NCBI RefSeq assembly: GCF_006345805.1
Contig: NC_042997.1
Location: 112,530,001-112,594,000, forward strand
Length of the DNA: 64,000 nt
Direction: 5' to 3'
From: Octopus sinensis
Taxonomy: Eukaryota
Part shown: in pieces, positions 17,058 through 50,299 of the stretch
How the letters are laid out: the number at the start of each line of letters is the position of its first letter
Position numbering within the stretch: position 1 is the stretch's first letter
Notes under the pieces: model-generated
The model's database searches: none
Told to the model about the DNA's origin: nothing
The model's input: the letters and a program-made list of their open reading frames with translations, nothing else
Position numbers and translations under genes: made by a program

Positions 17058-17093
17058 TGTGTGTGTGTGTGTGTATGTATATATATATATATA

Positions 17094-18380
17094 TCAGGTC
17101 ATCCCATAAGTTCTATCTGATTTTACCTTTTTTAAAAATTGAATGAAATTTAATAGTATTTTAGAATGTCTAATGGAATTTAAAATTATTTCTATGCATT
17201 TGTGTACATTTAAATCAATTAAATATTATTTTACAGAATAATAGAATTCAAATTTTTTTGATTAAAACCCTTTCTAACATGGAAGTATCCATAGAGCAAC
17301 TGAGGCACATAATGCTTTATGAGTACAAAAATGGAAACTCTGCAGCCGAAGCGACTCGAAACATACACTCAGTTTATGGGAAAGAATGCTTAAATGAAAG
17401 AACTTGCAGAATATGGTTTGCAAAATTCAGGAGTGGAGATTTCAGTCTTGAAGATGAAGATTGAACAGGACATCCAGTTGAGTTTGATGATAAGCTCCTT
17501 GAGGCATTATTTGAAGAAAATCCTGCATTATCAGTTGAATTAGCAATAAAGCTTAATTCAAACAATACAACTGTTCATCATCATCTTCAACAACTTGGAA
17601 AGGTTCCAAAACTTAGAAAATGGGTGCCTCATGAATTGTCCGAAAGCAACTGCAAATCCCAAGTTGACATCTGCTCTTCTCTCCATTCTCACAAACTAAT
17701 TTCACTCTTTTTGGTTAGTCTAGTGACTGGTGACGAAAAATGGATCTTCTATCGAAATGTTAAACATTGTAAACAGTGGCTTGGTAAAAATGAAAAAGCT
17801 CAACCACAACCGAGAAGGGAACTTCATGGGAAAAAGGCTTTTCTCTCTATCTTGTGGGATTGCAAAGGAGTAATTCACTTTGAATTGTTACCACCTAATG
17901 CAACAATCAATGCTCAAATCAACTGTCAGCAATTAGAGTGTTTGAATCAAGCTTTCAAGAAAAAAAGACCCGCTTTAGTGAATCGAAAAGGAGTGATGTT
18001 TCATCAGGACAACGTGCAACCCTACATTGCAAAGATCACATCACAGAAGATTGAAGAGCTTGGTTGGGAAAAAATTCCTCATCCACCTTATTCTTCTGAC
18101 CTTGCTCCTTCAGCCTACCATTTGATTTGTAGTTTACAGAATCATTTGGGGGACATAACTTTCACAAGCCACAAGGAGGTCGAAACTGACATTTCAGAGT
18201 TCTTCGCTTTGAAACCAAAAAAGTTTTACATTGATGAGATTAAAAAGCTTGTAAATAGATGGAGGGAAGTCATACATAATCAGGGAAAGTACATTGATGA
18301 TTAAATTTCAATTAAATATAACATTTTAATCACTTGTTTTCTTTATTCAAAATTCGGACAGAACTTATGGGATGACCTGA
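17094..18380 (+). mobile_element. Full-length (1287 bp) inactive mariner transposon
   Basis: About 27 bp TIRs (tcaggtcatcccataagttct / agaacttatgggatgacctga) with TA on both sides; transposase 17279-18304. Confidence 0.95.
17279..18304 (+). pseudogene. Mariner DD34D transposase pseudogene
   Basis: WVPHEL, VTGDEKW, HQDN and YSSDLAPSAYHL motifs; premature TGA at 17462; third catalytic Asp replaced by Ala. Confidence 0.92.
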
Positions 18381-18383
18381 TAG

Positions 18384-18416
<33 letters not shown>

Positions 18417-18421
<5 letters not shown>

Positions 18422-19977
18422 AATAAAAAATGGAGTTAACGCAGGTTTAAACAAGTATTTTTTCTTTCTACATATGTTTCAAAAATTCCACTGATACTTA
18501 TTCAAAAGAATAAAGGGTATAAACAATGCAATCTTCTCTTCGGAAAGTGAAAAAACAAAACTTGTCAATACGACATTTTAGCAAAAAATGATGGATTCGT
18601 ATAGCGATAGACAGAACGCTATTAATATTGTTTAAAAAAACGTTATATGATATAACGTCATAAGTAGCTAACAGACAGAGTAGGGATATTAATAGTGAAT
18701 GTTAAATATAAAGGAAATTAAAGTCTAAACTATATATAATGATAGAGACTACTTATATGCACTAAAAGTATGTTTTTGCCAATGCTTACATCTGTATGCT
18801 CGTTCTATAACCGTGTTTACTAGAGTATTTTTAGAAAAAATAATGAAAAATAGCTCAGAATTGCAGAGAAGACAGAATTTCCTGCCTTTGTCATATGGTA
18901 TCGAAATTGAGAGGATCAACCATTCCAAATGAAATTGTTCATTGTGGTCTTTTAAATTCCAAATCAGTTTGCTGAGACCGGTACTATTCCGTTTATTTCT
19001 ATCCCTAAATGTTGAGTAATGGATAGAAATTCTCTTAGATAACTCTAACGATGTGCTTCCAATGTAAAATCGTACTTTATTACGAGTACTGATTATACAC
19101 TGGTATATAGAATTTTTAATCTTAGAGTTACTTGACATAATTTAATTCTATTGGGATTGACTTCAGATACAATAACCTTGTTATTAATATTTCTAGAGGG
19201 TTGGATGGTAGTAGCTAAATTAATGTTAGTATTAGTAAATGTATTAATATTTAACAGTTTGTTATTATGAGAAGATATAATTTGCAAGAGATTTTTTGTG
19301 TTTGAAAAACCTATCGTAACCTTATGTGAATTAATTATAGAGTAATATCTAGAATTATTTGGAAAATTCCTAGCAATAGCTTGACGAAACAGCAGTGGGA
19401 GATTAGATTTAATTTGTCTCCCGTAAGGAATTATTAACCAAATATTTTTACTAGTATTCATAGCGTAATTACTTTTGAAGGTGTTATATTTACTTTTAGA
19501 TCGGTAATAGGGGAATAAATAAGGGTTATCTGCCTTCATTCGCTTTGTATCGGTGCGTAAGTTATGTTTGTTATCAATAATTCTTTTACGACTAGAAATC
19601 TTATCTACATTATTGAATTTACAATTAGACTGAGCAGAATCAATGTAGAAAATTTTTTCTGTATAACCTGCTTTGATTAAGGCAGAGTTATAGAATTCAG
19701 CGTTATTATTGAAAATATCAACATTAGCAGATAATTTAGATAATCTAAATGAAATATTCTTAACTAAATTCTTAGTAATTGCTCCAGGATGATTACTAAA
19801 TTTGCTAATGTACTTAAGATTGGTCAACGGTTTATGATATGGGAAGTAAGAGTCACTGTGTAAATTAAGCGTAATATCTAAAAAGTTGGCCTTCGTCAGA
19901 TCGTCATCAAAAACGATTTTTAAGCCCATTCTACTGAAAAAATTAACTAAACTGTTCTTAACTTTTTGTACCTTTTG
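18417..19977 (-). mobile_element. 5'-truncated Penelope-like element (Naiad-type), left inverted copy
   Basis: RT C-terminus (GLKIVF..ANFLDITLNL..YFPYHKP..YISKFSNHP) plus GIY-YIG endonuclease (SIYQC..FYIGST..R..H..STGLSKLIWNLK..CLLC..CKH); 1-bp frameshift near 19140. Confidence 0.92.
18464..18547 (-). ncRNA. Hammerhead-ribozyme-like motif in the PLE 3' region (left copy)
   Basis: ctttc-CGAAGA-long stem II-GAAA-catatg-UA-gaaag; the core is one nucleotide short. Confidence 0.6.
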
Positions 19978-21590
19978 ATTGTTTACTTTACCTCCAAAAT
20001 GTTTCTAACCAAAAGGTACAAAAAGTTAAGAACAGTTTAGTTAATTTTTTCAGTAGAATGGGCTTAAAAATCGTTTTTGATGACGATCTGACGAAGGCCA
20101 ACTTTTTAGATATTACGCTTAATTTACACAGTGACTCTTACTTCCCATATCATAAACCATTGACCAATCTTAAGTACATTAGCAAATTTAGTAATCATCC
20201 TGGAGCAATTACTAAAAATTTAGTTAAGAATATTTCATTTAGATTATCTAAATTATCTGCTAATGTTGATATTTTCAATAATAACGCTGAATTCTATAAC
20301 TCTGCCTTAATCAAAGCAGGTTATACAGAAAAAATTTTCTACATTGATTCTGCTCAGTCTAATTGTAAATTCAATAATGTAGATAAGATTTCTAGTCGTA
20401 AAAGAATTATTGATAACAAACATAACTTACGCACCGATACAAAGCGAATGAAGGCAGATAACCCTTATTTATTCCCCTATTACCGATCTAAAAGTAAATA
20501 TAACACCTTCAAAAGTAATTACGCTATGAATACTAGTAAAAATATTTGGTTAATAATTCCTTACGGGAGACAAATTAAATCTAATCTCCCACTGCTGTTT
20601 CGTCAAGCTATTGCTAGGAATTTTCCAAATAATTCTAGATATTACTCTATAATTAATTCACATAAGGTTAGGATAGGTTTATTGTATTTATTGTATCTGA
20701 AGTCAATCCCAATAGAATTAAATTTATGTCAAGTAACTCTAAGATTAAAAATTCTATATACCAGTGTATAATCAGTACTCGTAATAAAGTACGATTTTAC
20801 ATTGGAAGCACATCGTTAGAGTTATCTAAGAGAATTTCTATCCATTACTCAACATTTAGGGATAGAAATAAACGGAATAGTACCGGTCTCAGCAAACTGA
20901 TTTGGAATTTAAAAGACCACAATGAACAATTTCATTTGGAATGGTTGATCCTCTCAATTTCGATACCATATGACAAAGGCAGGAAATTCTGTCTTCTCTG
21001 CAATTCTGAGCTATTTTTCATTATTTTTTCTAAAAATACTCTAGTAAACACGGTTATAGAACGAGCATACAGATGTAAGCATTGGCAAAAACATACTTTT
21101 AGTGCATATAAGTAGTCTCTATCATTATATATAGTTTAGACTTTAATTTCCTTTATATTTAACATTCACTATTAATATCCCTACTCTGTCTGTTAGCTAC
21201 TTATGACGTTATATCATATAACGTTTTTTTAAACAATATTAATAGCGTTCTGTCTATCGCTATACGAATCCATCATTTTTTGCTAAAATGTCGTATTGAC
21301 AAGTTTTGTTTTTTCACTTTCCCAAAGAGAAGATTGCATTGTTTATACCCTTTATTCTTTTGAATAAGTATCAGTGGAATTTTTGAAACATATGTAGAAA
21401 GAAAAAATACTTGTTTAAACCTGCGTTAACTCCATTTTTTATTCCTATTATTCAAATATTCAACGTAAACACGAAGTTTCAACCTTTATAAACAAGGAGT
21501 TACAACATCTTTACTTGTGAGATTTTTGCTGCCCTGGTAACTATTCATTCATTTATCCGTGTTAATTGTTAACAAGGTAAAATACACTCA

Positions 21591-21592
<2 letters not shown>
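19977..21592 (+). mobile_element. 5'-truncated Penelope-like element (Naiad-type), right copy
   Basis: Same ORF; the frame extends upstream to D-CLLYLQNVSNQKVQKVKNSLVNFFSRMGLKI at 19977. About 122 bp net deletion near 20680; about 140 bp extra 3' sequence, then (TA)n. Confidence 0.92.
21317..21401 (+). ncRNA. Hammerhead-ribozyme-like motif in the PLE 3' region (right copy)
   Basis: ctttc-CCAAAGA-stem II (gaagatt/aattttt, cattg/cagtg, atac/gtat, ttattc/gaataa)-GAAA-catatg-UA-gaaag; G5 is mutated. Confidence 0.6.
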
Positions 21593-21657
<65 letters not shown>

Positions 21658-26057: not shown

Positions 26058-27257
26058 TATACAACCATATCATAAATTTAATGAAAACCTTAGATATATA
26101 AATGTTAATAGTAATCACCTACCATCAATTAAAAAATCGTTGATTAATAATATAAGTAAATGTATATCATTACTTTCTTATGATTTAGAAATTTTTAATA
26201 AACATGCACCTACGAGAGGCAGGTTATAATAATAATAATATTAAATTTTTTAATAAAAATAAAGATAAAAATATTAATAATTATAATAATTATGTTAGTC
26301 ATATTAGTAGTAATTGTAGTAATTATAAAAATAAAATTAAAAAGGAGACAAATTTTAATATTAATTCAATAAATGTTAATTATAATTTTAATATCATAAA
26401 GAAATATAATAATCGTATTGGTAATTATAATAATAATAATAATAATAATAATATTAATAATGGTAGTAATAGTAATAATAATAATAATAGTAATAATTAT
26501 ATGATTAATTATAATAATGTTAATAATAATAATAAGAAGAAGAAAATTTGGTTAATTGTTCCTTATGGGGCTCAAGTTAAAATGAACATTATTAAAGAGA
26601 TTTTAGATATTATTGAACAATTCATTCATGATAATCGTAAATATAAAAAAAATTTTCTCTAGTAATAACTTTGGAGTAGGTTATTCTACCACTAATAGTG
26701 TAGGTAACATTATTTCTTCTTTTAACAAATTTAAGTTGAATAATTTTTATAAAAATAAATTTTATAATCATACCAATAATAATAAAGATAAGACACTCAT
26801 TAATTGTACATGTAGAGATAAAACTAAGTGCAAATTTAATAATAAATGTGATTTAAATGATGTTGTTTATAAATGTATAGTTACATTAATTAATGAGAAT
26901 AATAGGAATAATAATAACTTAAATGCCATTTATATAGGGTTTACTTCCTCTAAAATAAAATTAAGAATCGCACAGCATATGCATTCATTTAAAAATAAAA
27001 ACCTAATTAACTCTACAGGGCTTAGCAAATACATTTGGGGGCTTAAATCCCAAAGTATTAAGTATGATTTAAGGTGGGAAATAATAAGTAAGGCCAAATC
27101 ATATAGTATAGGAGGTAATTATTGTTATTTATGTTCTAAAAAGCTTAAAGAAATTTTGTTTACTGATCATAATAATTTAGTGAATTCTTTGGATGAGCAT
27201 AAAATTAAATGCAGACACAGGTTACTTTACTTATATAATAAATTTCTAGATAAATAA
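26058..27257 (+). mobile_element. Second Naiad-type Penelope-like element, 5'-truncated and frameshifted
   Basis: QPYHKFNENLRYINVNSNHLP (RT thumb), poly-Asn linker, CTCRDKTKC..C motif, VVYKC..IYIGFT..R..H..STGLSKYIWGLK..CYLC..CRH. Confidence 0.9.
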
Positions 27258-47954: not shown

Positions 47955-49781
47955 ATAATAAATAATAATAATAATAATGAAATTATTGTATACAGTACTC
48001 AGGTGCACCACAACTTGTCAAAAAGTGCATATAAAGTATATGCAGTAATGTACAAATGTCTGGAAAATAAACAGTGTATGAGTCAGATACATGCTTGCAT
48101 GTGTATGGAGGGGAGAAAATCAGGTGTAGTGTTGGCGAATCTCAGGAAGCATGGAAGTTTTGAAGGATGCAGTGCTCCAACAACTAACAACTGATGCCAG
48201 CAGTCTGTTCCATGCTTCAGCAACTCTTAGCGTGAAAAAATGTTTCCGAAAGTCATGGGAGCTGTGCTGTTTTCTGACTTTGTAAATATGTCCACGGGTG
48301 TTAGACAGGTGGAGTTTGAAAAGGTGCTCAGAGTTATTGTTTGTAAGATGGTTAACAATTTTATGGGTGTCTGCTGCCAGACGTCGGAGTTTCAATGTAT
48401 CCATGCCCAGGGAAGTAAGGCGTTCAGAATATGGCAAATGCCTGATGGAGGGTATTCTCTTGGTTGCACGTCGCTGAACGGCTTCAAGACGATTAATATC
48501 CTGGGCAAGATAGGGGTTCCAGACCGGTGATGCAAATTCCAGGTAAGGTCTTATCATAGCTATATAAAGCCACAGATAGATAGCTGGAGAGCGGCTCACA
48601 AAGGACTTGGTGAGTGATGCCAAGACATCAGCCTTCTTGGCAATTTTAGCAATGTGTTTTGTCCAACGCAAATTGCTGTCGACAATAACACCCAGGTCAT
48701 GTTCACACAAAGACTTTTTGAGAATAGTGTTGTGGAGGGAGTAAGCAGACACTGGGTTTTTCCTCCCAAAATGTATGGTGGTACATTTGTCCACAGCCAG
48801 CTTGAGTTGCCAGTCCATGATCCACTGCTGCATTGTGTCCAGGTCTGATTGCAATAGAGATCAATAGTGTACAGGATCTGACCTCTTTATTTCGAGGTAC
48901 AGCTTGATGTCATCTGCATATTTCAGCACTGTAGCATTCTTTAAGTTGGCATCTATGTCATTAACATATGCAACAAATAAAAGGGGGCCAAGAACAGATT
49001 CCTGTGGTACATCAGATGTCATCTCATAGGGTGAAGAGTGCTGTCCTAGAACTGTGACAACCTATTTTAAGCCGAAAATAAAGGACTTCAACCAGTTATA
49101 GAGATCGTCTCTTACGCCCAATGCAGAGAGTTTCCCCATAAGTCTTTTGTGTGGCACAGAGTTAAAAGCCTTAGCAAAGTCCAGGTAAACAACATCCACC
49201 CATGATCCGCGATCAGTGATTTGGGTAATGTCCTCAAGAAACTCGATGAGTTGATTACAGCAGCTGGAGTAAGGAATAAAATTGTGACGGTTGGATGAGG
49301 CTGTGAGACTTCCAGAAGTTCCAGAGGGTTTCCCTGACACAGGATTCCATCAGCTTGGCGATGCAGCTAGTAAGACTAATGGGGCTATAGTTGACAGGCA
49401 ATGTGCGGTCGCCTTTTTTGAACAGAGGGATAACACTGGCAGTTTTCCACTGCTCTGGAGTAACACCATTGTCAAGACAGAATTGGAAGAATAGAGAAAG
49501 TTGACTTAGAAGAAAGTACCCACCGCATTTGAGAAGTAAGTATGTAACACCATCGAGACCAGGAGAGGCATAGTTGTGTTTATTCTTAAGGTGACGTTGT
49601 AGCATTGCTGGTGTAAATTTCATAGTAGATATAGAGTCCGGTGTCAGAGGTGATGAAGATGGAACATTTTGGTCTTCAACAGTAAAGATGCTTGCATAGC
49701 ATCCAGTAATGATTTCTGTACAATCTTTGGGATTGCCAGTAATCTGCCCAGTGTGGGGATTGCGAAGGGGACCAACTGGAG
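47955..49781 (-). mobile_element. 5'-truncated CR1/L2-group LINE inserted into a SINE
   Basis: PVNYSPISLTS, VDVVYLDFAKAFNSVPH, YADD (tatgcagatgac), DLGVIVD, FFTLRVAEAWN; short-repeat tail; the SINE segment agtacta..cttaca.agaataa is duplicated on both sides. Confidence 0.9.
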
Positions 49782-50299
49782 AGTACTAGGCTTACAAAGA
49801 ATAAGCCCTGGGGGCGATTTGCTTGACTAAAAGGTGGTGCTCCAGCATGGCCACAGTCAAATGACTGAAACAAGTAAAAGAGTAAAAGAGTAAAGAGTAT
49901 ATGGCAATGCTAACCATGTAATTAAGGTTTTGGTTCTGTCCCATTGTGTGACACCTTGGGCAATGACCTCCATCATAACCCTGGGCCAACCAAAGTTGTG
50001 TGAATGGATTTGTTAGATTAGATGGAAACTGAGAGAAGCCCATCACTTATATTTGTATGCATATGTTTTTGTTGTTTGTGCCCCCCCTCCCCATCACCAC
50101 TTGAGAACTGGCATCGGTGTGTTCATGTCCCCATAACTTAACACTTCAACAAAAGAAACCAACAGAATAGACATGAGGCTTATTCTGAAAGCACTTGTGG
50201 GCAATTTGGTTTGACTGAACCCTCCAGCATGGTGCCCCTCCCCCAACATGGCCGCAGTCCAATGACAGAAACAAGTCAAAGACAAAAACCTTTACAAAC

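Follow-up and report, generated by a model that had tools for sequence, protein, structure and literature searches.

A head-to-head pair of young Hydra-like PLE copies in Octopus sinensis, with twin target-primed reverse transcription as the favoured origin

The window, that is the whole stretch of 64,000 nucleotides analyzed here (Octopus sinensis, GCF_006345805.1, NC_042997.1, positions 112,530,001 to 112,594,000), carries a palindrome of two truncated PLE copies at 18417..21592. The following features were located, with positions counted from the first letter of the window.

18380..18419, no strand: left part of the (TA)n target microsatellite, abutting a mariner terminal repeat
18417..19977, minus strand: left arm, a 5'-truncated PLE copy (unit ~1301-2863) ending at the 'short' 3' end of the family
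19976..19977, no strand: head-to-head junction microhomology of 2 nt (TG)
19978..20009, plus strand: spacer of 32 bp, in-frame coding sequence of the right copy
20010..21448, plus strand: right arm, the mirrored part of a 5'-truncated PLE copy
20680..20687, plus strand: deletion scar, 8 nt in place of 132 family bases (net -124, frameshift)
20672..21115, plus strand: GIY-YIG endonuclease (EN) reading frame, CxxC..E..N..CxH (PF01541, E 5e-4, under the curated cut-off)
21449..21592, plus strand: one-sided 'tail' of 144 nt, up to the 'long' 3' end of the family
21593..21647, no strand: right part of the (TA)n target microsatellite

The two arms, 1561 bp on the left and 1439 bp on the right, are reverse complements of each other, and the palindrome was confirmed as originally described, with both arms, the spacer and the (TA)n flanks, at the level of the assembly only. 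The left arm contains the end of the RT palm, the thumb, the GIY-YIG EN and the 3' UTR. Its 5' end lies at unit position 1301 and that of the right copy at unit position 1267. The right copy begins at YRDD, with the final base of the codon for the first Asp followed by the second Asp, and the spacer is read in frame with it, both in agreement with the original prediction. The junction microhomology reaches 5 bp if extended to include one G-T pair, and the 144-nt tail has the sequence of the start of the next tandem unit. The EN frame at 20672..21115 lacks both CCHH and the CxCX5C linker. The DNA on the two sides of the palindrome is not mirrored, and the longest unbroken stretch of the stem is only 149 bp. 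With both ends inside (TA)n, any target-site duplication would be masked by the repeat. A joint recorded in X15 as 'opposite strands 19977-20009' was rejected, being ordinary family sequence. The locus is a dead copy without a function of its own, an ordinary by-product.

Raw reads on 17300-20009 numbered 0 and 2 in two runs. Among the pieces listed of the read contigs from four runs, which drop rare variants and from which the assembled individual may be absent, none crosses the centre. The neighbor on the left is a decayed mariner (PF01359, window ~17093-18381, plus strand) with terminal inverted repeats and one stop at ~17464; it is itself situated between TA/TG microsatellites, and the PLE lies directly at its right end. 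A degenerate (AT)n array of 3.2 kb occupies 144-3323 of the window.

A search of the same genome yielded 3202 candidates, 40 of which were scored, and the best copies among these 40 were 96-99% identical to the window element. It had been suggested to look for a full-length source element, and intact copies were indeed found: L002 and L003 (99% identical) retain an unbroken frame of 778 aa with RT and a C-terminal EN. The unit (period) is 2863 bp and holds a single ORF in the order RT, thumb and GIY-YIG, with YRDD at aa 353 and YIG at aa 671 when counted from the Met (775 aa). The 778-aa ORF matched no RT family in Pfam, and the RT assignment was based on motifs and on 42 homologues, one of them from Argonauta; the best homologue was 34-36% identical. 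In the element DKG is replaced by DKT (SDKTGN), RWL aligns with RWK/RWR of the homologues, and the EN reads CLLC..E..N..CKH, its conserved E and N being enclosed by CxxC and CxH. A 44-aa insert follows the thumb. The CCHH motif was absent from the EN in the homologue alignment. All 30 homologues that have an EN possess the CxCX5C linker, while the element does not, and it was also missing from the 12 most frequent translations obtained there (65 reads, counting redundant loci). No Rfam HHR match was obtained at E<=5 for L002 and L003, the other Rfam hits being chance matches. CTGANGA occurred only twice, both times inside the ORF and with no GAA core after it, which leaves room for a degenerate ribozyme. 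Nearly all listed 3' ends of the family continue into (TA)n or into degenerate TA sequence.

The identity of the element as a PLE was predicted correctly, but the label 'Naiad-type' fails because Naiads are defined by an N-terminal EN (PMC8557442) and the EN of the intact 778-aa sisters is C-terminal. Naiads also differ in their CxC linker, their CCHH and their body of 3.4-4.4 kb. The likeness to them lies in (TA)n targeting, tandem and inverted insertions and the lack of a canonical hammerhead. The same paper describes a Hydra clade of C-terminal EN+ PLEs (Craig et al., 2021, PMC8557442). The present element resembles this clade in its unit of less than 3 kb, its single ORF with RT and C-terminal GIY-YIG, its (TA)n targets, its DKT motif, the absence of CCHH, and CxxC and CxH around the conserved E/N. 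Compared by eye, its RT motifs also match those of the Hydra-1_Obim protein. Hydra elements differ in having the CxCX5C linker and a canonical hammerhead, and the element differs in its 44-aa insert after the thumb. At the N-terminal RWK motif of Hydra, the agreement is partial, the element having RW followed by L. Since the CxCX5C linker and the canonical hammerhead are missing, the element is probably better regarded as a Hydra-like PLE than as a plain Hydra member, a placement made by motifs and published descriptions. Hydra-1_Obim itself was ruled out as its family, the protein start and the ribozyme being different in the portion of that element available. In a quick tree made up of unnamed homologues, the element fell on a long branch together with P0001, P0002 and P0010.

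Other retroelement sequences were encountered as well. At 26065-27257 (plus strand), the window contains what is left of another Hydra-type PLE, unrelated to the first, which has an insert rich in Asn; its Cys linker is intact (NCTCRDKTKC), and it is 32-37% identical to the studied family. In L004:169-2730 (minus strand), a frame of 854 aa joins ~80 aa of unrelated sequence, which may be PKD-like, to a nearly full PLE ORF. LINE-type reverse transcriptase fragments, presumably CR1/L2-like, are located at 48120-49785 (minus strand) of the window.

Over ~1437 bp of alignment, the arms differ by four substitutions, by a pair of 1-bp gaps in the left arm and, in the right arm, by a block of 8 for 132 bases. 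The left arm accounts for one substitution and two 1-bp deletions, one at 19139/40 that shifts the frame at the start of the EN and one at ~18540 in the 3' UTR, while three G>A changes and the net 124-bp deletion belong to the right arm. Some of the 1-bp differences may be consensus errors. The left frameshift and the complementary nature of the lesions were thus as predicted, but the net loss on the right is 124 bp and not about 122 bp, which is the difference in arm length. Rebuilding a continuous ORF from the two arms, as had been proposed, is needless given the intact copies. The deletion scar at 20680-20687 was present in 0 of 29 other copies, and its 8-nt insert repeats adjacent sequence. 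Deletions with a templated insert are of the repair type left by polymerase theta, and this scar may be the record of one break. An arm divergence of four substitutions in 1403 bp (0.3%) indicates a young insertion.

Four non-majority variants are common to both arms. The first was found genome-wide only in the two window arms (2 matches), the second and third occur elsewhere only in single, more distant copies, and the fourth marks a small sub-lineage. Therefore, the arms either derive from one template or were homogenized later. The shared near-private variants are all confined to the outer 600 bp, a part in which the arms are identical, and the inner 674 bp contain three arm-specific substitutions (Fisher p 0.1 for the outer/inner contrast); at this p value, gene conversion in the outer arms was not accepted. 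The other pairs with long overlap (L031, L035, L037, L043 and L065) have 0-1 shared private variants each.

All exact matches in the one assembly to a word of 26 nt from the 3' end of the youngest subfamily were fetched, giving 67 matches at 53 loci. These comprised 35 head-to-head pairs, two loci with direct tandems only and 16 singles, so that the head-to-head shape is the commonest insertion form of the family in its youngest subfamily. Thirty-three pairs were scored by script, and L076 and L079 were added by reading short stubs. The copies stop at two fixed 3' sites, 'short' at unit 2863 and 'long' at ~3007-3013, followed by (TA)n. All 35 pairs combine a short with a long end (chance ~1e-11 under independent choice of ends), and the window pair follows this rule with its short end on the left and its long end on the right. 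An older subfamily included 22 pairs among 100 listed of 546 matches. Short and long ends were combined in 17 of the 18 pairs scored there (three already among the loci of the first set and one duplicate were left out), the exception being L112 with two long ends.

The two arms of a pair are not equally long. In 11 of the 35 pairs, the long arm consists of the tail only and the arms do not overlap, apart from one overlap of 3 nt, indicating that neither arm was copied from the other. The short-end arm extends further 5' in 22 of the 33 measured pairs; in the window pair, it is the long-end arm that does so. The 5' ends are scattered over unit 593 to 2981. Near-symmetric pairs, with 5' ends within 35 nt, numbered 8 of 33 versus 2.0 expected, a count reached in none of 20,000 permutations, which suggests some coupling of the two 5' ends. 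Microhomology at the clean junctions (17 of 33) averaged 3.5 nt versus 0.84 nt for random joins, a mean that omits the 16 junctions with inserted or mismatched bases. The original prediction stressed truncation at the RT active site. The position is correct, but a meaning at the protein level is not upheld, the cluster of 5' ends at YRDD (unit 1255-1325; 5/29, or 3/27 without the window arms) being not significant (p 0.14 for a fixed window and 0.59-1.0 for any window).

Some loci deserve separate mention. L044, L079 and L080 have an identical 5' truncation at unit 2739, which suggests L044, a partial tandem, as the source of L079 and L080. L031, L052, L119 and L043 show template switches that link far-apart regions of the unit or a captured foreign segment of 1.9 kb between the arms. 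L041 (G000:C9:689300-695500) is a palindrome with arms of 5.4 kb (98.5%), in which host DNA is mirrored together with a PLE copy; both of its ends are long, its arms have 11 private variants in common, and it represents a fold-back duplication or an assembly artefact. The window pair is unlike L041 in its unmirrored flanks and its short and long ends.

Taken together, we consider it probable, with moderate confidence, that the head-to-head pair of this young Hydra-like PLE arose as one real insertion through twin target-primed reverse transcription. The steps of such an insertion were all deduced from DNA. The GIY-YIG domain would nick both (TA)n strands, and the two nicked 3' ends would each serve as primer for a cDNA, with the same RNA (or a sister RNA) as template; one cDNA would start at the fixed short site, the other at the fixed long site, which lies 144 nt beyond it in the 3' direction. 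The two cDNAs would stop at most 34 nt apart, either at a shared broken RNA end or at a predicted RNA hairpin that covers the YRDD codons. The cDNA 3' ends could then anneal through 2-5 nt of complementarity and be filled in, the spacer of the resulting palindrome being the surplus length of one cDNA. After insertion, the arms would mutate separately, including the deletion with its templated insert. The left arm stops immediately 3' of the predicted RNA stem (14 bp, unit 1241-1294, z -2.3), at 1301, and the right arm inside its loop, at 1267; the stem is no more than a lead, because the clustering of 5' ends there is not significant.

Two-strand priming is favored by the end rule, by the tail-only arms and by the fact that either arm can be the longer one. 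This is in agreement with the biochemistry of a purified Poseidon PLE (PMC11167929), which cleaves the two strands of its target and extends both, begins RT at two sites within the RNA that delimit the tail, and is predicted to dimerize; the strict end rule and the non-overlapping arms fit such two-strand, two-site activity. Several points count against it, and all of the evidence stems from a single assembly. The excess of near-symmetric pairs calls for a coupling of the two 5' ends, and L112 has two long ends. The sequence of the window centre is identical under twin priming and under fold-back of a single cDNA, and the window geometry fits both. Shared private variants are rarer elsewhere, so that those of the window could be copied RT errors or the result of later arm-to-arm conversion. 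Staggered EN cuts trimming a hairpin intermediate could also yield short and long ends.

In twin priming of L1, both target strands prime cDNA on one RNA and microhomology joins the products. The present family would share the two-strand priming on one RNA and the joining by microhomology. However, L1 gives an inversion without duplication and primes internally at variable sites, whereas this family has two fixed start sites and an arm overlap that can exceed 1.4 kb. A literature search outside subscription journals found no paper applying twin priming to PLEs, and the available part of a recent preprint (bioRxiv 10.64898/2026.07.22.740005) does not treat it. Inverted 5'-truncated PLE copies with a one-sided tail are already known (PMC3846280; PMC8557442). 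They resemble the present pairs in the head-to-head copy, the tail at one end, the AT-rich or (TA)n target and the microhomology at the junction, but their tails are 30-40 nt long versus 144 nt here. As both window arms are 1.5 kb long and almost equal, the whole insert is palindromic and includes no full-length copy.

The original prediction of one young insertion event is borne out; the fold-back to which it was ascribed may apply to the window copy, but it is not the best account of the family. A cDNA from the long end would stop at the YRDD codons, snap back through 2-5 bp of pairing with a loop of 26-32 nt and copy itself to the short end, again as a single real insertion, or would self-prime on antisense RNA in a variant of this route (Arkhipova et al., 2013). 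We regard this origin as rather unlikely. The window geometry permits it, near-symmetric centres four times commoner than chance are directly explained by it, near-private variants common to both arms speak for it, and self-priming was proposed for palindromic inverted junctions in PMC3846280. However, no simple route leads from fold-back to the 11 of 35 non-overlapping pairs or to the 22 of 33 pairs with a longer short-end arm, and 11 pairs without arm overlap favor two-strand priming over it. The cDNA 3' end is not predicted to fold into the hairpin either, the computed structure being a different one (MFE -2.2 kcal/mol; z +1.2). Three copied RT errors in 1.5 kb would also be a high rate.

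It is very improbable that the palindrome is an assembly artefact, either a fold-back chimeric long read or two copies or haplotypes wrongly joined. PLEs in tandem or inverted arrangement are known to trouble assemblies (PMC8557442), L041 shows mirrored host DNA in the same assembly, and the possible consensus errors among the 1-bp arm differences would fit such an origin. A chimera, however, would mirror ends and flanks, which is not the case here, and the 124-bp deletion with its templated insert is confined to one arm. Two unrelated copies joined by mistake are excluded by the private variant that both arms share. About equally improbable are two independent neighboring insertions, or an older asymmetric insertion extended or homogenized by arm-to-arm conversion, for which the outer/inner distribution of variants speaks, because no (TA)n or target scar is present at the centre, the end rule holds, the junction microhomology is as in the sister pairs, and conversion, which may have acted later, does not account for how the pair arose.

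The way in which inverted repeats and tails of PLEs arise is an open question named in PMC8557442, and the strict combination of short and long ends together with the non-overlapping arms bears on it. Tentatively, with somewhat less confidence than in the origin of the window pair, we propose that a recently active Hydra-like lineage may have lost the Cys linker and the hammerhead and still targets (TA)n, that twin priming at two fixed RNA sites 144 nt apart would dominate its insertions, and that kilobase palindromes would be its normal product. If so, the intact copies at hand would make the origin of inverted pLTRs and tails testable in vitro. The Cys linker was associated with (TA)n targeting by Craig et al. 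(PMC8557442); the present family separates the two and retrotransposes without a canonical hammerhead. The structure of inverted truncated PLEs was known; the complete census of one subfamily and a family without linker and canonical hammerhead are new. Elements of such a kind seed tight palindromes throughout the genome and may be a source of fragile sites.

The persistence of the palindrome, which had been called notable, is only mildly so, 35 of 53 loci being head-to-head. With inverted Alus in eukaryotes, replication forks stalled at a spacer of 12 bp and not at 52 bp (PMC7999016). A spacer of 32 bp, an unbroken stem of 149 bp and a young age make persistence unsurprising here. No other pair examined forms a tight palindrome as long as that of the window, the next being L116 (~690 bp) and L072 (~360 bp); L065 has an arm overlap of 1.4 kb with a spacer of 178 bp. 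The value of the locus is thus that of the longest example in a clean natural series of insertions.
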